Positions 2,896 to 49,786 of a stretch of DNA of 50,200 bases are shown here, piece by piece; the stretch's first letter is position 1; every line of letters starts with the position of its first letter. Source of the stretch: a virus. The translations under genes and the position numbers were made by a program. A model generated the notes under the pieces. The model was not told the DNA's origin. It saw nothing but the letters and a program-made list of their open reading frames with translations, and searched no databases. The DNA lies in IMG/VR virus record IMGVR_UViG_3300045988_033256; one strand, given 5' to 3'.

Positions 2896-3942
2896 TCAAA
2901 AAACGTATTTTTCGTGTGCAATCCGAAGATCGCTCTCTCGCACATCTAAGTAAATCTGTGTCGTGGAGAGTTCTTCATGCCCGAGCATCATGGAAACCAT
3001 TTCGATCGGCATACCACGCCGCAGAGCAAATGTTGCACAAGTCCGGCGAAAACGGTGTGCATGAGCGCCCTGAACGCCCGCCCTTTCAGCAACGCGCTTA
3101 CACAAGCAATTCACGCTTTCGCGTGAGAAATGCCCCTCTGCGACCATATCCGGATTCCGAAACCAAGCCTCCTTGCGTGATGGCTTCGTAATGCGCCTCG
3201 GAAACAGATATTCGTTGTTATCGCTGCGTTCCTTGAGATATGCATTGATCGCAACAAGAGCTCTTGCACTCAGGTATACCGTCCGCACCTTGTCGCCTTT
3301 ACCGATCACAGTGATTTTGTCGCCGTTGATGTCGTCCTTTCGGATTGCACACACCTCTGCGGCGCGGCATCCGGTAGACAAAAGCGTTTCAAGCATTGCT
3401 GTTTCAAATGACGTTCTGCAAGCTACACGCATTCGCTCAACTTCCATATCAGTAAACGCCGACTCTTTTCTGCGCTTGCACTTAATAGCTTCCACGCGAT
3501 CTATCGGATTTCTGGTTATAATCTCTTCTTTAGTCAAATAGGTGTAGAAGCTGGACAGAAACCGTCTAACGTCATTGCAGTATGTCTTCGTTCGTCCTTT
3601 GGTCATCAGTTGAGCGATATACACCTGTATATCCTCGCTGCGCACCTCGTCCGCATTTTTCTGGATTGTGCGCAGGAACAGCCCCACAGCTTGCAGATAA
3701 ACCTCTATCGTGCGCGGACTGCGACCCGCAACCGCCTTGGCGACTGCAAATCGCTTCATCAGCACCTCATTGCGTGTTTTGCCATAGGGCACGATCGCTG
3801 TTTCCTTTGGGCGGACATCGTAATCATACAGAATGATCTCCAGCTGACTCTTGACAATCTGCAGGTCGCTGCCTGACTGTATATACACATCCAGCAATCG
3901 GTCGATCAATTTTTCTGTCAGTTGCACATCATCATCTCCCAT
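2896..3942 (-). CDS. Tyrosine site-specific recombinase (XerC/D-like), second tyrosine recombinase of the phage
   Basis: The C-terminal catalytic signature is AHAHRFRRTCAT...LGHEELSTTQIYLDV. An N-terminal SAM-like core-binding domain is present. It overlaps the upstream HsdM-like gene by 25 nt. Confidence 0.9.
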   Translation of the reverse strand: MGDDDVQLTEKLIDRLLDVYIQSGSDLQIVKSQLEIILYDYDVRPKETAIVPYGKTRNEVLMKRFAVAKAVAGRSPRTIEVYLQAVGLFLRTIQKNADEVRSEDIQVYIAQLMTKGRTKTYCNDVRRFLSSFYTYLTKEEIITRNPIDRVEAIKCKRRKESAFTDMEVERMRVACRTSFETAMLETLLSTGCRAAEVCAIRKDDINGDKITVIGKGDKVRTVYLSARALVAINAYLKERSDNNEYLFPRRITKPSRKEAWFRNPDMVAEGHFSRESVNCLCKRVAERAGVQGAHAHRFRRTCATFALRRGMPIEMVSMMLGHEELSTTQIYLDVRESDLRIAHEKYVF

Positions 3943-4776: not shown

Positions 4777-5976
4777 TCAACTATGATTGACGCGGCACCA
4801 ATGCCGCTGTGCTTTCTTCTTCCGTGCCGTCCGGCAGGCGCCGCAGAAACGGTTCTCTTTCCTCTCGTAGAACGTGCCGCCGCACCGAGCGCAATACTGC
4901 GGACGGATACGCCGAAATTCTGTGCAGTCATCGCAATTCGCGCAGCCGGCAGAGCACCCACCGAAGTCGTCCCAGTTCTGGCACATAAAACGCTGCCAAT
5001 ACGGATCGTAGCCCAGGTCATTCGCCCGTTTCCGCAGTAGACCCGCGAGATATGACAGCTGCTTGCGCACCTCTGTTCTCGTGGTGGACAGGTACACCGC
5101 CTGCTTGACTTTCGGCTCCGGCGCACCGGCTCCCCACGGACCATCGCCCATATATTCGCGCACCTTATCCGCGTTTTCGGTCAGATACACCGTGTAGACC
5201 TTGCCGCGCACCGCCTTTTCCGACTTTCCGAGCGCTTGTCCGATTGCCATGTAGCTGTCACCGTGACGGATACCGTCCGCCAGAACTGCATAGTCGTTAT
5301 CTGACCACATTGCGCTTTTTCCGTGGTTATCTGCCTTAACCGGTCTGTCCTTAATGCCGAGGTCCCGGCACCGGTGCTGGATCGCACCAGTTGTACGGTG
5401 CAGCAGTTCCGACAGCTCCGCCCATGTATATCTGTGCTGACTGAGCAGCATTTTAAGGCGGCTGTCCTCGTCTGCCGTCCAAGGATCCTTGCGCTGGATC
5501 GCGCAGGCGCGGTAATCTTTTTTGCGCTGCTCTGCGACCCACGACGGTTCCCAGCCGAGTGCCAGCGGCTCCATTTTCGAGAAGTTGAGGAAACTGCGGT
5601 TGCGCTCCGCCCATTTCCAGAACTCCTCCAGATAGACCACAGAAAAGCTGCACTGGCGGACTTTCTTTCGGTGCACCGGCAGGCCGCGGTTCTCTACCCA
5701 GCTTTTGCGCTGGTAGGTTTTGCCGCTTTCCCTTCCTGTCACTGTGGCGAGCAACTGGTTCAGCGTGACGTACCCGCCTGCCATCAGCACAGCTCCCAAG
5801 CCGAGCCGCTGGGCCCGAACAACGACCGCGTTCTCCGTGCGGTTCAATTTCTTCGCGATGGCGGGCACCGATGCATAGCCCCACTTCTCTGTCAGATAGC
5901 TTTCATCCTCCGGTGTCCATGGGCGCTTGCCGAGCGGCGGAGATTTACGCTTGCGAACCGCTGCCGCTGTTTCCAT
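4777..5976 (-). CDS. DNA-binding protein with three Myb/SANT-like repeats and a C-terminal Cys-rich (zinc-ribbon-like) basic tail
   Basis: Three W..ED..L...W-type repeats (PWTPEDESYL, DPWTADEDSRL, MWSDNDYAVL). The C-terminus is CANCDDC...YCARCGG...FCGACRTARKKK. RBS AAAGGAGAA is present. Confidence 0.75.
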   Translation of the reverse strand: METAAAVRKRKSPPLGKRPWTPEDESYLTEKWGYASVPAIAKKLNRTENAVVVRAQRLGLGAVLMAGGYVTLNQLLATVTGRESGKTYQRKSWVENRGLPVHRKKVRQCSFSVVYLEEFWKWAERNRSFLNFSKMEPLALGWEPSWVAEQRKKDYRACAIQRKDPWTADEDSRLKMLLSQHRYTWAELSELLHRTTGAIQHRCRDLGIKDRPVKADNHGKSAMWSDNDYAVLADGIRHGDSYMAIGQALGKSEKAVRGKVYTVYLTENADKVREYMGDGPWGAGAPEPKVKQAVYLSTTRTEVRKQLSYLAGLLRKRANDLGYDPYWQRFMCQNWDDFGGCSAGCANCDDCTEFRRIRPQYCARCGGTFYERKENRFCGACRTARKKKAQRHWCRVNHS

Positions 5977-11477: not shown

Positions 11478-11616
11478 GCTTGTCCTCCGTTCTCATGCTG
11501 ATCGTCTTTGCGCTCTCGCGCATATGCAGGCCGTACTTAGCAGCGTTCATCGCCTTGCCGATAACTCGGCGCTGCATATCTTTGACTTTCAGCGTCTTGC
11601 GTCTTGCTTCCGTCAT
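11461..11616 (-). CDS. Small basic hypothetical protein (51 aa)
   Basis: The frame is trimmed to the ATG at 11616, preceded by GGGGAGAAAACAGGAT. Confidence 0.4.
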   Translation of the reverse strand: MTEARRKTLKVKDMQRRVIGKAMNAAKYGLHMRESAKTISMRTEDKHGSKN

Positions 11617-12002: not shown

Positions 12003-12079
12003 GGTTTGTTATCGGTGTGTTATCGGTTTGTTGATTGTGTGTTATCTGTGTGTTGATGGTCTGTTGTTGGAGTGTTACG
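12003..12079. repeat. Seven contiguous 11-bp iterons (consensus GGTGTGTTATC)
   Basis: The units are ggtttgttatc, ggtgtgttatc, ggtttgttgat, tgtgtgttatc, tgtgtgttgat, ggtctgttgtt and ggagtgttacg. The period is exactly 11 bp, about one helical turn. Confidence 0.85.
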
Positions 12080-12296
12080 CAGACGCTTCCGCCTGCACCA
12101 ATCGGTTAGCCACATCGGCCACATGATAGCGACCGCCGGTTAAACGCGGAACACCATCTAAATAACGCTGTACGGTACGATAACTAACGCCAAACCAGTC
12201 TTTTAACTGTTTTGTGGTAATATATTCGCACCCTGCGAACGTGCGCAAACGGCCTTCAACCGTGCGTCTGCGGTTGCTTAATTCTGTTGCTGTCAT
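12075..12296 (-). CDS. Small HTH DNA-binding protein (73 aa) flanked by the iteron arrays
   Basis: ITTKQLKDWFGVSYRTVQRYL is an HTH. The ATG at 12296 is preceded by GGAGGG at 8-nt spacing. Confidence 0.7.
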   Translation of the reverse strand: MTATELSNRRRTVEGRLRTFAGCEYITTKQLKDWFGVSYRTVQRYLDGVPRLTGGRYHVADVANRLVQAEASA

Positions 12297-12361: not shown

Positions 12362-12467
12362 GCTCATCATCATTGTTGCCGCCACGCAGCATTGCACACA
12401 CAATAAGCAGCGCCATTTCTACGCCCAGTGTTGCCAGCACTCCGGCAACGAACGGGTGAATATACAT
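12357..12467 (-). CDS. Small hydrophobic peptide (36 aa)
   Basis: MYIHPFVAGVLATLGVEMALLIVCAMLRGGNNDDER. The ATG at 12467 is preceded by GGAGGTGATACCG. It is the tail of the spurious 151-aa track ORF. Confidence 0.5.
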   Translation of the reverse strand: MYIHPFVAGVLATLGVEMALLIVCAMLRGGNNDDER

Positions 12468-16581: not shown

Positions 16582-17760
16582 ATGCCACGTCGAAAAAAAG
16601 ACCCTCGCGGCTTTGTCCGTGAGACCGGAACGTATATGGGAAAGCATTACGACCTGAGAGCAAAAACCGAAAAGGAACTCAACGAGAAAATCAGGGCAAA
16701 ACGTGCAGAGATCGAATCCGGAAGTAAACTCATTGAAGCCGGTGTTACCGTAAAGGAATGGGGGAAACGCTGGGTAGAAACTTACAAGTCCGGCGTGAAG
16801 GAATCCACGCGCAGGCTGATCGAGGGACGGATTGTGAACTACGTCTATCCCTACATTGGAGATATTCCTGTTAGTAAGGTACGTCCACTGAACTGTCAGG
16901 AAGCGCTTAACTCTGCGGAAGGACGTGCGCCGGACACCGTAAAGAAGGTGCAGCAGGCCATCGAGCAGATGTTCCGCGCAGCCAAGCAGAACGGCTTGTG
17001 CGTCAATAATCCTGCGGAAGATTTGAAGATGCCCCGTACTGGCAAGCAGAAGAGCCACAGGAGCATTACAGACCGAGAACGTGTTATTTTACTGGAAACC
17101 GCAAAGACGCATCCTGCGGGAACGTGGGTGCTTACTCTGCTGTATAGTGGCTTGCGTCCGGCGGAAAGCCTTGTGCTGACATACGCCGATATTACAGGCG
17201 GTATGATTACCGTTAACAAGGCATACGACCGGGACACCCGCGCCGAGAAATACCCCAAGTCAGACGCAGGCGTTCGCAAAATCCCGATCATCCCCCAGCT
17301 TGCCGCAGTCCTGCCGAAAGCCGGTTCGTTCGGTGAATTGGTTTTTCCGCGTAACGGGCACTTGTACGATGATAAGTCCATGCGTGCCATGTGGCAGGGT
17401 TTCCGCGCCGCAATGGACGATACCGAACGCGAGTTGATCGCGGCGGGGAAAATCTCACCCATCGCCGAGCAGTTGCCGCCTATCGTTCCATACGATCTGC
17501 GCCACACGTTCTGCACAGATTTAGAGCGTGCGGGCGTACCACTCAACGTCGCAAGCAAACTCATGGGACACGCATCTATCGAGATCACCGCCAAGATTTA
17601 CACGCACACCGGCGAGGATATGATTGAGCGTGCAGGTGAGCAATTAGCCGCCTTGTTCAGTCCCACATTTAGTCCCATTAACGAAATGCAAAAAACGCCT
17701 ATGGCTGACATTATGCGAGAGCTGAAAGAACTTCGTGCAGCAGTGCTCAAAGCCGTATAA
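16582..17760 (+). CDS. int: Tyrosine integrase (phage integrase family)
   Basis: 392 aa with an N-terminal arm-binding/SAM-like region. The catalytic motifs are RPAESLVL...DLRHTFCTDLERAG...LMGHASIEITAKIYTH. RBS AGGAGGAAAA is present. It is adjacent to attP. Confidence 0.95.
   Translation: MPRRKKDPRGFVRETGTYMGKHYDLRAKTEKELNEKIRAKRAEIESGSKLIEAGVTVKEWGKRWVETYKSGVKESTRRLIEGRIVNYVYPYIGDIPVSKVRPLNCQEALNSAEGRAPDTVKKVQQAIEQMFRAAKQNGLCVNNPAEDLKMPRTGKQKSHRSITDRERVILLETAKTHPAGTWVLTLLYSGLRPAESLVLTYADITGGMITVNKAYDRDTRAEKYPKSDAGVRKIPIIPQLAAVLPKAGSFGELVFPRNGHLYDDKSMRAMWQGFRAAMDDTERELIAAGKISPIAEQLPPIVPYDLRHTFCTDLERAGVPLNVASKLMGHASIEITAKIYTHTGEDMIERAGEQLAALFSPTFSPINEMQKTPMADIMRELKELRAAVLKAV
17659..17677 (+). 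repeat. Putative integrase arm-type sites (2 x AGTCCCA, 12-bp spacing), left arm
   Basis: The sequence is tcAGTCCCAcatttAGTCCCAtta. The same heptamer pair recurs to the right of the core. Confidence 0.5.
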
Positions 17761-39602: not shown

Positions 39603-39713
39603 GTGTGTACTCCTTTCAGATTAGGCGTTTTAGGTGGTCGCCGTCACCGATCTGCCTGCACTTTTAGGCTTGCAGGATAGCCAATTTCCGTAGTTTAATG
39701 CCGTTGCGGGCAT

Positions 39714-44438: not shown

Positions 44439-44455
44439 TATACATAACCAACAAA

Positions 44456-44508
44456 TATACTTGCGCAAATATAGTTGTTTTGCCTATTGCTATACTTGCG
44501 CAAATATA
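44456..44508. promoter_or_regulatory. Two identical 18-bp near-palindromic operators TATACTTGCGCAAATATA (44456-44473 and 44491-44508)
   Basis: It is a perfect direct repeat with a 35-bp period and a palindromic core TTGCGCAA. Copy 2 fills the spacer of the + strand promoter. Confidence 0.75.
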
Positions 44509-44515
44509 TTATACT
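44487..44515 (+). promoter_or_regulatory. Promoter TTGCTA-17-TATACT for the + strand cassette
   Basis: The hexamers lie at 44487-44492 and 44510-44515. Confidence 0.55.
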
Positions 44516-44559
44516 ATAGTCACAGTAAAGAAAACGAACACCGAAAGGAAGTAATCAAT

Positions 44560-45024
44560 ATGTTAACTAACCGAGAAACCAACGCAGCAATCAAGCGCGA
44601 ACTGAAAGCCGCAGGCTACAACACCAAGTCCTTCAAGGTATCCGTTAAGGATTGCGGATACAGCACCAGCGCACATGTTACGATCAAAGATCCGGCTGTT
44701 AAGCGCAGCGACGTTGAGAAGCTGCTCATGCACTGGGACGAGATCGACCGCGACGAGCGCACCGGTGAAATCCTCGCAGGCGGCAACTTTTATATGTTCG
44801 TTGAGTACGAGTACGGCCTCTTTGATGAGGTATCCGCCGAGTACATCGACGAGGCGGAAAAGGTGCTCAGAAGTTCCGAGGGCATCATAACGGTTCGCCC
44901 TGGTCTCCTGTACTATGACTACCGTCTTCACGACAGCAAAAGCCGCTGCACCGCCATTGGCGGAGCGAAAGAACTTGCTAAGTACATTTACCTGTATCAG
45001 CAGTTCGGCACGATCGGCGCTTAA
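44560..45024 (+). CDS. Hypothetical protein (154 aa), resembling LPD29-type domains of conjugative-element polyvalent proteins
   Basis: The start is trimmed to the ATG at 44560, preceded by AAAGGAAG. The N-terminus reads TNAAIKRELKAAGYNTKSFKVSVKDCGYSTSAHVTIKDP. Confidence 0.65.
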   Translation: MLTNRETNAAIKRELKAAGYNTKSFKVSVKDCGYSTSAHVTIKDPAVKRSDVEKLLMHWDEIDRDERTGEILAGGNFYMFVEYEYGLFDEVSAEYIDEAEKVLRSSEGIITVRPGLLYYDYRLHDSKSRCTAIGGAKELAKYIYLYQQFGTIGA

Positions 45025-45090
45025 AAGGTTCTCGCGGGGTTCATCCCAAAGCCCCGCAGCCACAATAATTTTAATTTGGAGGTACACACC

Positions 45091-45636
45091 ATGAACACCA
45101 TCAAGCACACCGAATACAAATACAACGGTCGCCGGGTTATCCTCGACACCTGCGAACTCACGCCGGGCAAATACGAGACTATGCTCCTGTACCCCAACGG
45201 CCACGAGATCGACTGCCGCACGGCACGCACCGAGGCGGACGCAATCGCAGACTTTGACGAGCTGCTGACCGCCTACCCGGCAGACACCAAGCCCGCAGCA
45301 CCCAAGCCGCTTACCGGCAAGTACGCCAAGCTCCGCGACGATCTGCGCAAGGTGTACGAGATCGGCAAAGCCGCAGCCGCACAAGTTGAGGACGGCGGCA
45401 CCTGCAATTTAGATGCGCCCTCGCTCCTACTCCCGCGCTGGCAGTCCGCCAAGATTGAGCAGGCTTGCAAGGAGGCAGGATGCGGCTGCTTTGAGTGGAA
45501 GTGCTTTAACCGGCGTTGGGTTATCTGCTTCCACATTCCCGGTCAGGCATACAAGCGCGAGACCGCTGCCGAGGTAATGACCAAGGCGCTTACCGCTATG
45601 GGCTATGATGCCCTCACATACTGCGCCATCGACTAA
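45091..45636 (+). CDS. Hypothetical protein (181 aa)
   Basis: The ATG at 45091 is preceded by TTGGAGGT. The protein contains DGGTCNLDAPSLLLPRW...GCGCFEW...PGQAYKRETAAEVMTKALTAMGYDA. Confidence 0.65.
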   Translation: MNTIKHTEYKYNGRRVILDTCELTPGKYETMLLYPNGHEIDCRTARTEADAIADFDELLTAYPADTKPAAPKPLTGKYAKLRDDLRKVYEIGKAAAAQVEDGGTCNLDAPSLLLPRWQSAKIEQACKEAGCGCFEWKCFNRRWVICFHIPGQAYKRETAAEVMTKALTAMGYDALTYCAID

Positions 45637-45704
45637 CCCACTCACCCGCCCCGGAGGAACGAGGGAATTCTCCCGCCCGGCTCATGCACCCGCGGCGGAA
45701 CATA

Positions 45705-45734
45705 TTGACACTACCCCGCACATCGGGGTACAAT
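45705..45734 (+). promoter_or_regulatory. Internal promoter TTGACA-18-TACAAT
   Basis: The hexamers lie at 45705-45710 and 45729-45734. The spacer contains a ccccg/cgggg hairpin. Confidence 0.5.
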
Positions 45735-45821
45735 TATCACAACAGCGCAAAACCTAAAGTCCTGCATATCGGACTTACAACGTGATACACTATTCACAAC
45801 AAACAAGGAGGAAAAAATATC

Positions 45822-46055
45822 ATGGCAGATTTAAGAGTTTGGGACAACGCAGGCAACATGATTCCTAACAAAACCGTACAGGATTGGATTGATTTTTACA
45901 AGGCGCAAGGCTACAGCGGCAACTTTTTCATCAATAAAAAGTGCTATGATTTCTTCACTCTTTCCGTCCGCACCCCCTACGATGTGGACAAATCCAAAGT
46001 TGTAACCAAAATCGACAACGGTTACTACGGCACGCCGGGCATTATCACCGAGTAA
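45822..46055 (+). CDS. Hypothetical protein (77 aa)
   Basis: RBS AAGGAGGAAAAAA is present. Confidence 0.6.
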   Translation: MADLRVWDNAGNMIPNKTVQDWIDFYKAQGYSGNFFINKKCYDFFTLSVRTPYDVDKSKVVTKIDNGYYGTPGIITE

Positions 46056-46068
46056 AGGAGGCAGCAAA

Positions 46069-46506
46069 ATGAAAATTCAAGTAGTGAAAGACTACACGAC
46101 GAATTTTGAGGGCGATGTTTATACCATCGACCTCAGCCGCAAATTTGAGGGATTCGAACCCGGAGATTTGATCTGTTATGCTTGTCCGTTCTCGCCTGCT
46201 ATGCCGCTGCAGCTCGAACTTGCAATTCGTGCAGACGGTTCTTTGATCTTCCGAAGCTGGAAATTTATCGAGGGCGAAGGAAACCATTACCTTCACACGC
46301 GCGAGCTTTCCGAGGCCGACCGCAAAGGCATCCAAACGCCATTCATTCCAACCGAAGCGCAGACCGATACCGTGAACGGCCTGTTCTCAGGCCGCATCAA
46401 GTTTGAAGGTCTAAAACTTGCGGTAGGCTCTACTCTCCAGCGCATTTGCCCTATCGACTTGCAGCGCGAAGAAAAGCTGACCGGCGAAAATATTTATCTT
46501 GCCTGA
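46069..46506 (+). CDS. Hypothetical protein (145 aa)
   Basis: RBS AAAGGAGG is present. Confidence 0.65.
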   Translation: MKIQVVKDYTTNFEGDVYTIDLSRKFEGFEPGDLICYACPFSPAMPLQLELAIRADGSLIFRSWKFIEGEGNHYLHTRELSEADRKGIQTPFIPTEAQTDTVNGLFSGRIKFEGLKLAVGSTLQRICPIDLQREEKLTGENIYLA

Positions 46507-46522
46507 TTGTAAATACCATGAC

Positions 46523-46560
46523 AAACCCCGCTCACCAAAGCCATAAGGTGAGCGGGGTTT
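46523..46560. terminator. 14-bp perfect-stem hairpin (bidirectional terminator-like)
   Basis: The stems are aaaccccgctcacc (46523-36) and ggtgagcggggttt (46547-60). Only short U-tracts follow on either strand. Confidence 0.6.
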
Positions 46561-47680
46561 CCCATTATACGACTGTTTCGGTTTTGCAGGACTTGCACCC
46601 GCTTTCGGCTCTATGCAAACCGGTATACCTCCACAGGGAGGTATGAACGCTATCGTCGCGTCTGTACGTCGGGCTTTTACCGACGGTTTCCCGGCTGTCC
46701 AGAACGGTTGTATGAAATCCAGAGAGGTATTACCTCACTTTCGCAAGTTTACTTGTGTTTCCGTTCTGTGTGATTAGGTTGTTTATTGCAAGAGATAAAC
46801 AGACTGGTGCTCTTTCGTGGCGTGTACTTAGCCACCCGAAAGCGCCGTATCGGCTTTGTAACTTTGTTAGCAAACTGGTGTTTTGCTCTCGGCTCTCTAA
46901 GTCCGTGTGAGTGCTTATCCAGTAGCACTCGCCCTCTCGATATAGGCTGTTCGGCGTCTCTGTCCGTCGTGTCACGCGTCTCTATCGGTGCGTAATCCGG
47001 CTGATTCCCTCGTAAGGTTACAGCGGGGAGCGACCCCGGTCGCGGCGTGCCTGCAAGCACCCGCTGAACTCTGCAAAGCCGTTGCAGCAGCTTCACAGGC
47101 GTTCGGAAACAGATTGTCCGTCTTTCCAGACTGTCAGAATATTATCGTCCTCGTTGGAGGCGTTGTGCTCCCTCCACCTCATGCAGTTTCGGGAACAGAT
47201 CGCCTTGCACGTCGTCCATCATGCAAGGCTTGCCAAAAGTCCGCCATGTTGCCCTTGGCTAAAAAGGTTCTGTACGTTACCCGTCCGGCCTCATGAAGCC
47301 ATCCGGGCGTTTTTGCGGTGACTGTTGCCCGCAGACACCGCAACACATTCTCAATTTTAGCGTGTATGTTATTACTCCGTCACCCTCATGCAGGCTTTGG
47401 AGCATATCGGCGTGCCGCGCAAAAGACACGCCGAAAGAATAGAAAGGATAATCAATGCCTTCGTTCCGCGAAAGGCGTTTTGCTCCTCTGCCCTCATGCA
47501 GACTTTGGAGCAGGTCAGCGGCAGGTCTCCCCACCGCTTTAAGTAGGTATTTGGGGTTAAACAGAAAGGCTTATCACCCGTCAGCCCTCACGCAGGCTTC
47601 CGGGCGTGTACCCGCCTTTCGGCGGGCTGAAAGTGGAGGAACGAAACTCCGTGATTCCGCCCTTTAGGGCTTTTATCACG
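46561..47680 (-). ncRNA. Candidate large structured non-coding RNA (about 1.1 kb) containing 5-7 repeated hairpin modules; strand tentative
   Basis: No credible ORF or RBS is present. A TGGTATAAT promoter lies at 47686-47694 on the minus strand and a strong hairpin lies at 46523-46560. Local stems are dense, and hairpins with a conserved loop and compensatory stems occur at 47167-47196, 47280-47307, 47373-47404, 47481-47512 and 47575-47608. Confidence 0.55.
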
Positions 47681-47685
47681 ATATC

Positions 47686-47694
47686 ATTATACCA
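47686..47694 (-). promoter_or_regulatory. Extended -10 promoter TGGTATAAT
   Basis: The reverse complement of attatacca is TGGTATAAT. It lies about 40 nt downstream of the stop of the late-regulator gene and points into the ORF-free region. Confidence 0.6.
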
Positions 47695-47733
47695 CCATTC
47701 TTTGTAGTATTGTGTAGTCCGTTTTCCACAGCT

Positions 47734-48090
47734 TTATGCACAGCCTGTGCGTATATGTTCTACTGCCCGCAACGCCCGTGCGTGCATCTTTCCGCGAACG
47801 TGCACTTCGTTGTAATTCATTCTCTCGGCGGTCTCTCTCCACGTCCGACCGTTTACATAGTGCTCGATCAACAGCGCCCGCAGCGCCGCATCCTGCACCT
47901 TAGCCGTTGTGCTGATAATCTCGGCCTTAATCAGCGCAAGTCGTTCCTGTTCTTTCTGTATCTTTTCGGATAGGGCAAGATATGCATCCGCCTTGTTTGC
48001 AGTCACGTCGCCTCCGCCGCCCGGTGTGTCCTTGATCGTCGCCGTTGCGCTTGTCGCCCGTGTCCACGCCCTTACTCGTGCTTCTTCCAA
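47734..48090 (-). CDS. DUF1492/ArpU-like late transcriptional regulator (sigma-70 region-4-like HTH); start uncertain
   Basis: LLIEHYVNGRTWRETAERMNYNEVHVRGKMHARALRAVE fits the family. The first canonical start is TTG at 48090 with no RBS, and the frame stays open up to 48153. Confidence 0.7.
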   Translation of the reverse strand: MEEARVRAWTRATSATATIKDTPGGGGDVTANKADAYLALSEKIQKEQERLALIKAEIISTTAKVQDAALRALLIEHYVNGRTWRETAERMNYNEVHVRGKMHARALRAVEHIRTGCA

Positions 48091-48136
48091 CGCAGAGATT
48101 GATTTTTCAAGGTCAATCCCTCGTCTGAGCCATTCT

Positions 48137-48352
48137 TTAGTCGTCGTGTGCCACTACCTCCTCCATACCGTGCTGTGTATATCGCCTGCGACGGCTGATT
48201 CTCGTCGCCTTGCGGACGCAACCCACACCCGGTTCACATCCGCGCGATTTCCCCGTGTCGATCAAATAATGACACGCCCACAGTTTAGAGCCTTGGCTCG
48301 TACCCAGTACTCGCCAGTATGCGCACCCAGCGCATTCGCTTTTCTTTTTCAT
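48137..48352 (-). CDS. Small Cys-rich (zinc-binding-like) protein (71 aa)
   Basis: The protein reads MKKKSECAGCAYWRVL...WACHYLIDTGKSRGCEPGVGC. Its ATG overlaps the upstream gene end. Confidence 0.6.
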   Translation of the reverse strand: MKKKSECAGCAYWRVLGTSQGSKLWACHYLIDTGKSRGCEPGVGCVRKATRISRRRRYTQHGMEEVVAHDD

Positions 48353-48684: not shown

Positions 48685-48960
48685 TCACTCGTCCGCACGC
48701 TCCAAACCATCTAACGCTCCGCTAAGTACAAGCGCCGTTGCTTCAACTAAAATAGTCATTTTAATCCGTGGCAGGTTATCGAACGGAACGTCTTTCGGCT
48801 TGTTCTTGCGCTGACCAGCGGTTTTCTGTGTCAGCATACGGCACATCTCGTCTACCGCTTCTTTAAGCAATGGTATGTTCGGTTTCTGGTTCTGAAATGC
48901 CGTCCAGAGCGCAAAATTTTCAAGATTTTCCTCTGCTTTTGCTTTAAGTTTATCATTCAC
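48685..48960 (-). CDS. Hypothetical protein (91 aa)
   Basis: The GTG start at 48960 follows AAGGAA. It overlaps the recombinase gene end by 8 nt. Confidence 0.55.
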   Translation of the reverse strand: MNDKLKAKAEENLENFALWTAFQNQKPNIPLLKEAVDEMCRMLTQKTAGQRKNKPKDVPFDNLPRIKMTILVEATALVLSGALDGLERADE

Positions 48961-49786
48961 ACGCTGATTCCTTCTTTTTCTTTCTTGCGTATGCCGCCCT
49001 GCGCTTTTCCGCGCATGCTGCGCACATCACTCGTCCGGGTATCGCATCGCGACATTGGCAGACCACGCAGACACCAGCGGCTTTCAGTTTGAGATACCAC
49101 GGGTCTTTTGCTTCTCGTTTCGGTTTAACTGGCTTAGGTTTTACTTCGCGCTTCTGTTTGACCGGTTTTGGCTTTGGTGGCTCCCGTTTCGGCAGCTCTA
49201 CGCCCACGCGCTTGCAGCCGTCTCGAAACGAGCTTACCGCCATTCCCAATTCACGCGCCGCTGCTGATTGTGACAGTTCGCCTTTCCTTGCGCGGTCCGC
49301 TACAGCAGCAAATTCCTCCGGAAGCGGTTTTTCTCTCCGTCCGAAATGTACGCCTCGCGCCTTTGCCGCAGCGATGCCCTCCGCCTGCCGCTTCTTGATG
49401 TTCTCACGCTCGGACTGTGCGACGTATGACAGCAGTTGCAAAACGATGTCCGCAATCAACCGCCCGGTCAGGCCCTTGTCCTCGCGCGTATCCAGCAGTG
49501 GCATATCGAGCACCACGATATCGGCGTTCTTCTCTTTCGTGATATGCCTCCACTGCTCCAAAATCTCATCGTAATTGCGTCCCAGACGGTCAATGCTGGA
49601 TACCATCAGCGTATCGCCTGTACGCAGTCTGCCGATAAGTTCGATGTACAGCGGTCGGTCAAAGTCCTTACCAGACTGCTTTTCTACGACAATATTTTCC
49701 CGCTGCACGCCTGCGCCGGTCAGACTGATAATCTGCCGTTCCTCGTTCTGATCGCGGGTAGATACACGGGCATAGCCGTAGGTCAT
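48953..49786 (-). CDS. Small serine recombinase (resolvase/invertase type) with a Lys/Pro-rich linker and C-terminal zinc-ribbon-like basic tail
   Basis: MTYGYARVSTRDQNEERQ...VSSIDRLGRN...SYVAQSERENIKKRQAEGI is the catalytic domain. The HTH is GELSQSAAARELGMAVSSF. The tail reads KPKPVKQKREVKPKPVKPK...CVVCQC...CAACAEKRRAAYARKKKK. Confidence 0.9.
   Translation of the reverse strand: MTYGYARVSTRDQNEERQIISLTGAGVQRENIVVEKQSGKDFDRPLYIELIGRLRTGDTLMVSSIDRLGRNYDEILEQWRHITKEKNADIVVLDMPLLDTREDKGLTGRLIADIVLQLLSYVAQSERENIKKRQAEGIAAAKARGVHFGRREKPLPEEFAAVADRARKGELSQSAAARELGMAVSSFRDGCKRVGVELPKREPPKPKPVKQKREVKPKPVKPKREAKDPWYLKLKAAGVCVVCQCRDAIPGRVMCAACAEKRRAAYARKKKKESACE

Follow-up and report, generated by a model that had tools for sequence, protein, structure and literature searches.

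The stretch of phage DNA analysed here (the window, 50,200 nucleotides) carries on its minus strand five copies of a compact two-tier hairpin, which occupy the 5′ half of a proposed structured non-coding RNA of about 1,160 nt (47680-46520). Our preferred reading, to which we give about even weight, is that the five modules are reiterated docking sites for one partner. The RNA appears to be a previously undescribed structured non-coding candidate, and its carriers are temperate siphovirus-like phages of human-gut Oscillospiraceae, with Subdoligranulum as the probable host.

Five two-tier hairpins read from the minus strand

Twenty-eight distinct module instances went into a covariance model (R1). 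Run over the whole 50-kb window with filters off, it returned exactly five matches, all on the minus strand (47609-47570, 47515-47476, 47407-47368, 47312-47273 and 47200-47161; E 7e-12 to 2e-7), and the sixth-ranked match had E>1. An earlier note on this DNA had counted five to seven hairpins: the five stand at the positions it gave, while its two "degenerate copies" have no R1 match. The spacing of 94-112 bp that it reported is borne out by start-to-start distances of 94, 108, 95 and 112 nt. A repeat search of the window recovered the repeat families of the array, and the word CTGCRYGAGG occurs four times in the window, each time within the array and on the minus strand, with about 0.55 occurrences expected by chance. 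The spacers between modules are non-repeated, and Tandem Repeats Finder found no tandem repeats at a minimum score of 30. The modules are as follows:

47575-47606, minus strand: module 1, GCCCGG / AA / GCCU-GCGUGA-GGGC / UGA / CGGGU, hexaloop at 47593-47588; R1 50.9 bits, E 5.5e-11; MFE -21.3 kcal/mol, z -5.04
47481-47512, minus strand: module 2, UGCUCC / AAA / GUCU-GCAUGA-GGGC / AGA / GGAGCA; R1 54.3 bits, E 6.8e-12; z -3.04
47373-47404, minus strand: module 3, UGCUCC / AAA / GCCU-GCAUGA-GGGU / GAC / GGAGUA; R1 53.1 bits, E 1.5e-11; z -3.30
47278-47309, minus strand: module 4, GCCCGG / AU / GGCU-UCAUGA-GGCC / GGA / CGGGU; R1 37.0 bits, E 2.2e-7
47166-47197, minus strand: module 5, GUUCCC / GAA / ACU-GCAUGA-GGU / GGA / GGGAGC; R1 47.9 bits, E 3.2e-10

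Each module is 32 nt long and combines a 6-bp outer stem, a purine-rich 3x3 internal loop of tandem G·A / A·A type, an inner stem of 3-4 bp and the hexaloop G-C-R-Y-G-A, under which the inner stem is closed by a U·G pair. What had been described as an 18-20-nt loop is thus not open, since it contains the covarying inner stem and the hexaloop. Seven positions are invariant across the 28 distinct modules (C15, U16, C18, U20, G21, A22 and G24); the C15-G24 pair never changes, U16·G23 is present in 26 of the 28, and pair 14-25 appears as CG, GC, UG, AU or GU. A K-turn was rejected by inspection for the internal loop, as a 3x3 loop has no room for a 3-nt bulge together with tandem G·A pairs.

Stem positions pair in 94.6% of cases among the 28 distinct modules, against 81% after shuffling and 31-55% with the partners slid, and in 99.1% among the 22 distinct best matches (control ranges over both tests: 81-87% for shuffles, 27-55% for slid partners). 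Compensatory stem changes are seen among the modules of the window and also in about 100 related phage contigs, so that the same surface of hexaloop, inner stem and purine internal loop is presented on stems of differing sequence. This upholds the view that selection on an RNA structure, and not plain duplication, accounts for the hairpins. The covariation signal comes largely from paralogous modules, and the number of independent substitution events behind it is modest, the viral, genome and metagenome scans having found two lineages of closely related gut phages (A and B). In module 5, the inner stem ACU..GGU of the window is replaced in relatives by GCU..GGC, a compensatory change.

The loops differ in how far they vary. 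Module 1 has GCGUGA in 37 of 38 aligned lineage-A sequences. Module 4 is the one with loop variation among relatives: over 38 aligned sequences it shows GCGUGA (14), GCAUGA (9), GCGCGA (8), UCAUGA (3), ACAUGA (1) and UCAUGG (1), and it is absent in 2. Its inner stem takes the forms GGCU/GGCC, GACU/GGUC, GGCU/GGUC and GGCU/AGCC.

The array RNA is read from the minus strand. The stems pair as minus-strand RNA at 94.6-99.1% of positions and as plus-strand RNA at 73-78%, because many pairs are G·U: about 20% of those on the minus strand, each of which would be an A·C mismatch on the other. Folding z-scores of the modules run from -2.3 to -5.0 on the minus strand versus +0.7 to -2.8 on the plus strand, and the fold of 47100-47680 reaches -232.9 kcal/mol (z -5.40) on the minus versus -203.8 kcal/mol (z -3.68) on the plus strand. 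All 292 model matches, from 71 sources, lie on the strand of the neighbouring regulator gene. The pairing, the z-scores and this common strand make firm what had earlier been a lean toward a minus-strand RNA; the plus-strand T-runs that had been set against it are A-runs upstream of minus-strand modules. The modules were rejected as intrinsic terminators, which are G+C-rich hairpins with a U-run directly behind them, as A-rich or mixed sequence follows the modules on the minus strand.

The proposed larger RNA unit and its surroundings

The earlier note missed that the array is one domain of a structured RNA of about 1.16 kb that, as read from the sequence, has its own promoter and terminator. 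The unit would be transcribed from an extended -10 promoter just after the late-regulator gene, with a predicted start near 47680, and would end at a strong intrinsic terminator, the putative 3′ end of the RNA. Its parts and its upstream neighbour are listed here:

47734-48090, minus strand: small sigma-70-region-4-like regulator gene (previously called "ArpU-like"), the upstream neighbour, outside the RNA
47686-47694, minus strand: extended -10 promoter-like element TGGTATAAT, read from the sequence
46520-47680, minus strand: whole proposed ncRNA unit, about 1,160 nt, bounded by the promoter-like element and the terminator in both lineages
47650-47680, minus strand: 5′-terminal two-tier hairpin P1, CGUGAU..GCCC UAAA GGGC..AUCACG, present in MFE and centroid folds
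47610-47627, minus strand: hairpin GCCCGCC-GAAA-GGCGGGU directly 5′ of module 1, from the predicted fold and lineage comparison
47116-47131, minus strand: second repeated hairpin type, GUCUG-GAAAGA-CGGAC, preceded by UAUUCUGAC
46930-47024, minus strand: accessory hairpins without an R1 match, the claimed "degenerate copies" at 47000-47024 and 46930-46956
46579-46696, minus strand: conserved 3′ domain, arm variants tabulated in 39 sequences
46693-46684, minus strand: GNRA hairpin Ha, stem CGG/CCG, UGA/UCA, GGA/UCC or UGG/CCA, loop always GNRA
46683-46669, minus strand: hairpin Hb, CCGG/CCGG, UCGG/CCGA or UCCG/CGGA
46661-46647, minus strand: hairpin Hc, part of the 3′ domain
46644-46625, minus strand: hairpin Hd, CUCC/GGAG, CGC/GCG, CCC/GGG or CGCC/GGCG
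46602-46586, minus strand: T-loop-like hairpin GCGGG-UGCAAGU-CCUGC, enclosed by the stem 46622-46617 / 46584-46579
46520-46560, minus strand: intrinsic terminator AAACCCCGCUCACC-UUAUGGCUUU-GGUGAGCGGGGUUUGUC, an inverted repeat

Lineages A and B are about 55% identical, and both keep the promoter-like element, P1, the 3′-domain helices and the terminator. The helices of the unit differ between them by compensatory changes, some having been tabulated by pattern extraction rather than from one global alignment. For the promoter-like element, lineage A has TGGTATAAT and lineage B has TGATATACT, and an invariant GATATCGTG comes next in both. P1 becomes CGUGG..GCUCC AAG GGAGC..CCACG in lineage B, with compensatory changes in both tiers, and the hairpin 5′ of module 1 has the counterpart CCCCUGC-UUCG-GCGGGGG in the same place. 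The second hairpin type, with one copy in lineage A and two to three in lineage B, changes its stem from GUCCG/CGGAC to CCCG/CGGG. The T-loop-like hairpin occurs with the stems GCAGG/CCUGC, CGCGG/CCGUG, CACGG/CCGUG and CGCGG/CCGCG and the loop UGCRANY. The lineage-B terminator has other stem sequences, GCACCUCCCCG / CGGGAAGGUGC, then UUUUGCUU. Within the unit, only the 46560-46520 hairpin fits an intrinsic terminator; it also resembles one for a plus-strand gene that ends at 46506.

The accessory hairpins did not hold up as degenerate modules. The one at 47000-47024 is a lineage-specific insertion hairpin whose loop is free to vary in relatives (UUACGA, UAAAAA, CUUGUUUG), and it sits within a conserved stem (GCUG/CAGC in lineage A, GCGG/CCGC in lineage B). 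The one at 46930-46956 belongs to the most variable, dispensable segment of the RNA and is missing from two relatives (L083 and L078).

Unit length ranges from 834 to 1,219 nt in relatives, and the RNA of L083 folds with a z-score of -5.5. Variation is lowest over the first 350 nt or so, the stretch with modules 1-3. The region is under selection, since its DNA keeps 90-96% identity even in phages where the identity of the neighbouring regulator protein has dropped to 69%. Alternatively, the unit could be a long 3′ UTR of the regulator mRNA.

The number of modules varies from two to five: of 94 complete arrays, 49 have five modules, 13 have four, 12 have three and 20 have two. The gene order on the minus strand is regulator, promoter, structured RNA, terminator, optional cargo and then a small protein, a PAPS-reductase-like protein, terminase and portal. 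The regulator matches phrog_36 "transcriptional regulator" (E 8e-9), and its Pfam matches all fall under curated thresholds (Phage_antitermQ 7e-4 to 1e-3, Sigma70_r4_2 2e-3 to 2e-2, DUF1492 0.14). The gap from the terminator to the late genes ranges from about 0.1 kb to >2.9 kb with variable cargo inside: the window and many relatives hold 1.2 to >2.9 kb of cargo, sometimes on the opposite strand, and in L083 just about 100 nt separate the terminator and the first late gene. The late operon has promoter-like -35/-10 elements of its own and lineage-specific direct repeats, which lie beyond the RNA terminator. Because the gap is variable and carries cargo, and because the late operon has its own promoter-like region, the RNA is separable from that operon. 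Searches of the neighbouring proteins with Pfam, PHROGs, PADLOC and NCBIfam found no RNA-binding family, and the adjacent genes have no defence or anti-defence annotation.

Coding capacity, known families and distribution

The unit is non-coding. Substitutions show no codon periodicity, variable sites being spread evenly over the three codon phases, and no open reading frame is conserved in the unit, where open frames shift in position and length between relatives. A protein-coding repeat was rejected on the spacings of 94, 108, 95 and 112 nt, which do not keep frame, and on the lack of periodicity; the repeated peptide LQSLHEG that the modules could encode also falls to stop codons.

At gathering thresholds, the sole Rfam 15 match in the window is GP20-b at 39622-39682, outside the unit, and permissive Rfam scans of 46400-47800 and of the L083 RNA gave chance-level matches only (at most 23.5 bits, far under the cut-offs). 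The families covered include GOLLD, ROOL, OLE, HEARO, raiA, pRNA, riboswitches, tmRNA and 6S. ARAGORN found no tRNA or tmRNA genes in the window. Compared with a tRNA, the 3′ domain has a T-loop-like hairpin in a 6-bp stem, without a D arm or anticodon arm and, in lineage A, without CCA. In the literature, the loop word GCAUGA turned up unrelated microRNA papers only.

Several repeat-bearing systems were considered and rejected. In type III toxin-antitoxin systems, the antitoxin RNA (ToxI/CptI-like) is a run of abutting, near-identical tandem repeats, each about 34-45 nt long, with a terminator and then the gene of an endoRNase toxin behind it; such an RNA, or a phage pseudo-ToxI, does not fit modules that are 94-112 nt apart, a region without tandem repeats and neighbours without a PADLOC match. 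A CRISPR array or a phage solitary-repeat anti-CRISPR RNA is recognised by identical repeats of 28-37 nt with spacers of uniform length, or by a repeat in common with a host CRISPR; on the first of these marks, it disagrees with stems that differ between modules and with uneven spacing. As for an rRNA-hairpin mimic, R1 scored at best 7.8 bits (E about 1) against the E. coli rrn operon, in a 16S segment that we take not to form a hairpin in the accepted 16S fold.

The RNA is confined to the two lineages in all the collections searched. Among 50,697 phage genomes on deposit, none has similar DNA. In IMG/VR, a two-module pattern retrieved lineages A and B and about 38 matches from other environments, none of which fitted the model. 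A 20-mer search of 185,579 species genomes gave one true match, in a Subdoligranulum variabile MAG; its other matches were due to chance or to a multi-copy element of Pseudomonas that is unrelated. When metagenomes were scanned with a three-module pattern, >120 matches came up, of which 10 were real, all from lineage A or B and all in human-gut assemblies; the remainder are coincidences, attributed to G+C-rich or repetitive sequence. Words like CTGCGCGAGG are apparently common in high-G+C DNA, which would explain why chance matches in metagenomes were far above the advance estimate.

A proposed multivalent RNA and the alternatives

The idea of a multivalent RNA that binds some partner, raised in the earlier note, stays the best reading. 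One RNA would bind several copies of one partner through its reiterated modules; that partner, most likely a phage or host RNA-binding protein, would be sequestered or assembled in trans, and the 3′ domain, with its GNRA and T-loop-like hairpins, would be the folded core. The beads-on-a-string layout and the variable copy number are as expected for reiterated independent sites. As a counterpoint, the middle two loop positions tolerate transitions (R-Y), as wobble RNA-RNA pairing would. A more far-reaching proposal, which we put forward tentatively and with clearly less confidence, is that the locus represents a new class of large phage RNA whose expandable two-tier hairpin array serves as a multivalent decoy or assembly scaffold. 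As a decoy, the RNA might draw off an immune sensor or an RNA-binding factor of the host while the phage infects or is lysogenic; as a scaffold, it might use its palindromic CAUG/CGCG loops to self-associate, forming a particle of RNA alone in the manner of ROOL and GOLLD. In either version, copy number (2-5) would tune capacity. Among known systems, our favoured functional model is that of the CsrB/RsmZ sponges, which likewise have many short hairpins with one loop motif on variable stems and a varying number of hairpins. In contrast to them, the present RNA is phage-encoded, its larger two-tier hairpins stand about 100 nt apart, and the GGA / A(N)GGA loop motif is found in no module, the loops being GCRYGA.

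The hexaloops might instead dock on RNA, through kissing contacts within or between molecules by which the RNA folds or self-assembles into a higher-order particle, as ROOL and GOLLD, two large phage-associated RNAs, have been shown to do; we consider this unlikely for the present RNA. At the centre of the loop stand four bases that are complementary to themselves, fully in CAUG and CGCG and with wobble in CGUG, and module 4 of lineage A switches among these three and never shows CACG; in OLE L9.3 and GOLLD L21a, such palindrome switching was taken to indicate symmetric intermolecular kissing loops (PMC12286853). The RNA is also large and phage-encoded, and GNRA and T-loop-like motifs are typical of compactly folded RNAs. 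However, lineage B has two GCACGA loops, whose CACG is not self-complementary and has no CGUG partner loop in that lineage, and the absence of CACG from lineage A is weakly significant (about 3 expected and none seen, with phylogeny ignored). Mutual information found no covarying partner for the variable module 4 loop beyond lineage linkage, and the coexistence of arrays of two, three, four and five modules is awkward for a fixed architecture. Overall, the array RNA shares with GOLLD and ROOL, large "ornate" ncRNAs from phages and prophages of hosts such as Firmicutes, its size (0.8-1.2 kb), a high degree of structure, its conserved and more variable parts, its GNRA-type motifs and other motifs of tertiary interaction, and the absence of a protein; some of its loops also have tetranucleotide palindromes of the kind that serve intermolecular kissing in GOLLD and OLE (PMC12286853). 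It differs in matching neither Rfam model, in not lying beside tRNA genes, in being known from two gut-phage lineages only, and in its tandem near-identical modules of variable number, an array that GOLLD and ROOL lack.

An analogy with lambda, where the late-transcription order is Q - PR′ - 6S RNA - tR′, would make the unit a cis-acting leader or insulator for late transcription, with a regulator or antiterminator loading on the nascent RNA, or a read-through stop. We judge this improbable. It would suit the minus-strand order of regulator, promoter, RNA, terminator and late genes, the weak similarity of the regulator to phage antiterminator Q and sigma region 4, and the short distance to the late genes in L083; the Q match, however, is below the Pfam threshold, the late operon has promoter-like elements and direct repeats beyond the RNA terminator, and elsewhere kilobases of variable cargo intervene. 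Likewise, nut boxB, HK022 put and Q-qut sites lie downstream of a late-regulator gene and upstream of late genes and have conserved-loop hairpins, with a terminator ending the leader, but they are single or double sites with GNRA-like pentaloops, not two to five reiterated hexaloop hairpins with a folded 3′ domain. A lambda-type nut site comprises a linear boxA and a short GNRA-like pentaloop hairpin bound by an N-type arginine-rich protein, and each operon arm has one such site; the neighbouring proteins, searched with Pfam and PHROGs, include none recognisable as N-like.

Decidedly improbable, in our assessment, is a base-pairing regulator or ribosome decoy, in which the transcript or pieces of about 100 nt would pair with mRNAs or the 16S 3′ end, or titrate 30S subunits. 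The loops do expose AUGA, GUGA or ACGA beside GG, all loop variants could by reasoning from their list pair (with wobble) to a UCGUG target, and the 5′ leader, like the sequence behind three of the modules, has CCUCC or CCUUUC stretches. Yet the Shine-Dalgarno-like GAGG that the earlier note placed in the loop has only its G-A in the hexaloop; the next two G's are paired in the conserved, covarying inner stem, so such a reading requires melting a conserved helix. The anti-SD-like CCUC loops belong to the wrong strand. Furthermore, the 4-6 exposed nucleotides are too short for specific pairing, a start-codon reading does not suit the GCGCGA and GCACGA loops, and no complementary site in a phage mRNA was found, because CTGCRYGAGG is absent from both strands of the window outside the array.

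A DNA-level element is very improbable, whether as duplex sites (for the terminase small subunit at pac/cos, or for the late regulator) or as hairpins in single-stranded DNA. The region does lie between the late regulator and terminase genes, where the pac/cos sites of many Gram-positive phages are found, and each module is an inverted repeat; but the arms differ between modules of one phage and stay complementary, which a sequence-reading dsDNA protein does not need, and a duplex site does not produce the G·U asymmetry. Covarying helices span >1 kb, including the GNRA and T-loop-like hairpins, and the uneven spacing is not helix-phased, so that the phased DNA sites suggested before fit neither this spacing nor the strand-asymmetric G·U pattern. 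A packaging role also recalls the pRNA of phi29, which forms a multimeric ring, a pentamer or hexamer, on the packaging motor. Both are phage RNAs encoded beside packaging functions with loops capable of 4-bp loop-loop pairing, and five is also the commonest module number here; in contrast, the present modules are covalently linked, their number is not fixed at five, and the region has no match in Rfam, which includes a pRNA family. The packaging genes present here are of the terminase type, and phages of that kind are not reported to need a packaging RNA.

The least probable of the alternatives is a template array for a UG27-like reverse transcriptase. UG27 ncRNA arrays are of variable length, occur in gut prophages of Bacillota or Bacteroidota and gain and lose units; the system has an adjacent reverse transcriptase, two accessory ORFs and units of about 135-167 nt with the motifs AUCN7UANAG and UUYA (bioRxiv 10.64898/2026.09.22.753630). 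The resemblance lies in the gut-prophage setting and in the variable number of structurally conserved RNA units, gained or lost between close relatives. Unlike the sequence-diverse UG27 units, those described here are shorter (about 94-112 nt), have a conserved hexaloop and are embedded in a larger RNA with 5′ and 3′ domains of its own. The UG27 motifs are missing from the array, the 2 matches to AUCN7UANAG elsewhere in the window being within chance; no reverse transcriptase or accessory gene lies nearby, and domain scans of the neighbours and of ten larger non-structural ORFs gave no reverse transcriptase.

Few bacterial or phage ncRNAs longer than about 800 nt with conserved structure are known, examples being OLE, GOLLD, ROOL, HEARO and raiA, and the functions of most are open. 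This locus adds a candidate with a readable anatomy, a hairpin reiterated two to five times on a putative folded core, carried by abundant temperate phages of a common human-gut genus. The short module (32 nt) and its defined conserved residues give direct experimental access. Should a host regulator or a defence component prove to be the partner, gut phages would possess, in this RNA, a tool for takeover or anti-defence; should the RNA be its own partner, it would broaden the young field of natural RNA-only assemblies.

Hairpin modules and their strand

The repeated hairpins described in the earlier note are real: a repeat search of the window recovered their family, and a covariance model of the module (R1), built from an alignment of 28 distinct instances from the window and related contigs and run with filters off, gave exactly five matches in the window. 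All are on the minus strand, with E-values from 7e-12 to 2e-7, and the next best exceeds 1:
47609-47570, minus strand, R1 match (covariance model)
47515-47476, minus strand, R1 match (covariance model)
47407-47368, minus strand, R1 match (covariance model)
47312-47273, minus strand, R1 match (covariance model)
47200-47161, minus strand, R1 match (covariance model)

Since R1 finds only these five copies, two further "degenerate copies" proposed earlier are not modules. Four copies of the core CTGCRYGAGG lie in the 50-kb window, always in the array and only on the minus strand, against a chance expectation of 0.55.

Read on the minus strand, the module consists of an outer stem of 6-7 bp, a purine-rich 3x3 internal loop (AAA/AGA, GAA/GGA, GAU/GGA and similar) that in several copies is only a tandem R-A/G-A mismatch, an inner stem of 3-4 bp with a final U·G pair, and an apical hexaloop, G-C-R-Y-G-A. 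C15, U16, C18, U20, G21, A22 and G24 are invariant in all 28 distinct modules. The loop of 18-20 nt in the earlier note is therefore mostly structured, with inner stem, internal loop and hexaloop lying within it.

The module stems covary. Among the 28 modules, 94.6% of stem cells pair; shuffling the columns gives 81%, and shifting the partners by one to three columns gives 31-55%. In the 22 distinct best R1 matches from 71 sources, 99.1% pair. Paralogous modules and orthologous variants are pooled in these figures, so independent substitution events are fewer than cells. Pair 14-25 is CG in 10 modules, GC in 10, UG in four, AU in three and GU in one.

The RNA strand is the minus strand, as the earlier note had leaned towards supposing. 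On this strand, G·U makes up about a fifth of the pairs (U16·G23 in 26/28 modules, G5·U34 in 14/28), and the same stem positions pair in just 73-78% of cells on the plus strand. Folded singly, minus-strand modules give the proposed structure at z-scores of -2.3 to -5.0 versus +0.7 to -2.8 on the plus strand, and the whole array gives -5.40 versus -3.68. Every R1 match (292/292, in 71 sources) lies on the strand of the upstream regulator gene. The T-runs that had cast doubt on the strand are A-runs preceding minus-strand modules.

The larger structured RNA

The array belongs to a whole structured RNA and is not an array alone, a conclusion that goes beyond the earlier note. This proposed non-coding unit of about 1,160 nt (47680 to 46520, minus strand) carries modules 1-5 in its 5' half and lies in the following stretch:
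46506-47734, bounded by a plus-strand ORF (ending at 46506) and a minus-strand ORF (48090-47734)

The stretch contains no conserved reading frame; substitutions in the RNA lack three-base periodicity, and open frames shift among relatives. Rfam at gathering and permissive thresholds and ARAGORN gave no match for the RNA, nor did BLAST of the region against deposited phage genomes.

Relatives, gathered via the upstream protein (76 IMG/VR loci), module patterns in IMG/VR, a genome scan and a metagenome scan, fall into two lineages, A (the window's type) and B (e.g., locus L083), only about 55% identical over the region. Even in contigs with an adjacent regulator protein of only 69% identity, the region keeps 90-96% DNA identity. 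The unit starts at an extended -10 element that reads TGGTATAAT in lineage A, TGATATACT in lineage B, with an invariant GATATCGTG after it; in both lineages it opens with a two-tier 5' hairpin and closes with an intrinsic terminator whose stems differ between lineages with pairing kept. Its length ranges from 834 to 1,219 nt. The first ~350 nt (modules 1-3) are least variable, and the segment around 800-1,000 nt, absent altogether in some relatives, is most variable.

Of the 94 complete arrays, five modules are present in 49, four in 13, three in 12 and two in 20, and deletion end-points suggest gain and loss by putative recombination between modules. In lineage A, the loop is GCGUGA in module 1 and GCAUGA in modules 2, 3 and 5; module 4, in 38 aligned sequences, shows GCGUGA (14), GCAUGA (9), GCGCGA (8), UCAUGA (3), ACAUGA (1) and UCAUGG (1), and is missing in two. 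Lineage B reads GCACGA, GCACGA, GCAUGA in order.

The 3' domain comprises several helices with compensatory changes between lineages. A three-pair hairpin always bears a GNRA loop (CGG-GAAA-CCG, UGA-GAGA-UCA, GGA-GGAA-UCC, UGG-GAGA-CCA), three more hairpins accompany it, and a five-pair hairpin carries the T-loop-like loop UGCRANY. Another type of reiterated hairpin has one copy in lineage A and 2-3 copies in lineage B:
47116-47131, minus strand, CUGRC-N-G plus YCCGG-AAAGA-CGGRC, hexaloop GAAAGA
L083, about 12005-12020 and 12075-12090, GAAAGA-loop hairpin

In L026 (about 5517-5554, corresponding to the window's terminator at 46520-46560), L061 and L062, the terminator-hairpin loop is inverted, from TTATGGCTTT to AAAGCCATAA, with stems unchanged, which looks like a flip via recombination between inverted arms. 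The RNA also has recurring pyrimidine stretches that resemble the 16S 3' tail: CCUCC in the 5' leader in lineages A and B (window about 47632-47640, minus strand; L083 about 11607-11615), CCUUUC or CCUCC 3' of modules 1, 2 and 5, and CACCUCC after the T-loop-like hairpin in lineage B (L083 about 12386-12392).

Genomic setting, phage and host

The minus-strand order is a 71-aa Cys-rich protein, the regulator, the RNA, a cargo slot, a small protein, a PAPS-reductase-like protein, and then terminase large subunit, portal, scaffold, major head, tape measure and tail. The regulator is small and sigma-70-region-4-like (phrog_36; all Pfam matches sub-threshold). Features of this setting are as follows:
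48953-49786, minus strand, DNA-invertase-type serine recombinase (phrog_125, Resolvase domain), about 0.9 kb 5' of the regulator gene
48137-48352, minus strand, 71-aa Cys-rich gene, upstream of the regulator
48090-48160, minus strand, region of the regulator's N-terminal segment (about 3910-4000 in L001, L007, L020, L040, L061, L072)
44461-46506, plus strand, variable cargo slot between RNA terminator and late operon
about 44455-44510, minus strand, ATATTTGCGCAAGTATA present twice as a direct repeat shortly before the first late gene
L083 12446-12490, direct repeats upstream of the late genes in lineage B, TTGCTTAG three times
39622-39682, minus strand, GP20-b motif (Rfam), 57.6 bits, E 2.9e-10
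16582-17760 (plus) and 2896-3942 (minus), two tyrosine integrase-family proteins

The regulator's conserved N-terminal segment, TKEWLRRGIDLEKSISALEEARV, lies ahead of the gene's first canonical start, a TTG at 48090, and overlaps the TAA stop of the Cys-rich gene. The equivalent start position is ATG in lineage B and ACG in the window and 6/6 lineage-A loci examined, where an in-frame TAG lies four codons upstream. This start would be explained by initiation at ACG or by a +1 shift, at GAC GAC U|AAA, fusing both proteins.

The window's cargo slot holds four unannotated opposite-strand ORFs (187, 186, 77 and 145 aa) with no match in Pfam, PADLOC or NCBIfam and a single PHROGs match, to a family without assigned function; in relatives, the distance from RNA terminator to late genes runs from about 0.1 kb (L083) to >2.9 kb. 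The late operon possesses a separate promoter-like region, whose direct repeats are not the same in A and B; lying beside a -10-like TATAAT or TATCAT, they may be lineage-specific binding sites for the late regulator.

The phage is probably temperate, given the window's two tyrosine integrase-family proteins. In a scan of 185,579 species genomes, the sole true match was a Subdoligranulum variabile MAG (Oscillospiraceae), and all true metagenome matches with a source label came from human-gut assemblies. GP20-b, between the portal (41213-39795) and scaffold (39602-39018) genes, is the only known RNA family that Rfam found in the window. A multi-copy Pseudomonas element (L213-L270, e.g., CP140254.1) contains a 23-mer, GCTCCAAAGCCTGCGTGAGGGCA, matching module 1 across inner stem and hexaloop, probably a chance identity multiplied by copy number.

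Possible roles of the array

The favoured model is that the RNA would be made as a separate transcript acting in trans as a multivalent protein-binding platform (sponge or assembly scaffold), on which the modules would be reiterated, independent docking sites. It is favoured because loop and internal-loop residues are fixed while stems vary, because the hairpins are local, beads-on-a-string, with unrelated spacers, and because module copy number is variable.

In the main rival model, the module loops would mediate RNA-RNA docking. CAUG and CGCG are palindromes, with CGUG a wobble intermediate of both, and the loop changes resemble the palindrome switching from which intermolecular kissing loops were argued for in OLE and GOLLD (PMC12286853); however, the two CACG loops of lineage B are without a partner, and a search for a covarying partner column found none. 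A cis-acting leader or antitermination role would suit a position after the late regulator but fits poorly with a late operon whose promoter-like region is separate, with cargo in between. 

The ribosome-related mechanism of the earlier note, in which Shine-Dalgarno-like or anti-Shine-Dalgarno loops would act on 30S subunits, is weak and without support, because both final G residues of GAGG form base pairs within a conserved helix and the anti-SD reading requires the wrong strand. Its alternative of DNA sites accounts for neither the strand-asymmetric G·U pattern nor the uneven module spacing. Among published systems, UG27 comes closest as a precedent for variable ncRNA arrays of gut prophages and would imply a reverse-transcription template array; here, the array lacks the UG27 motifs, and scans of the neighbouring proteins and ten larger ORFs found no RT.

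The known distribution, two lineages of related gut phages, is narrow and therefore limits both the covariation evidence and generality. The RNA is a new family among the large structured phage RNAs of unknown function, and its distinctive feature is an expandable hairpin array.
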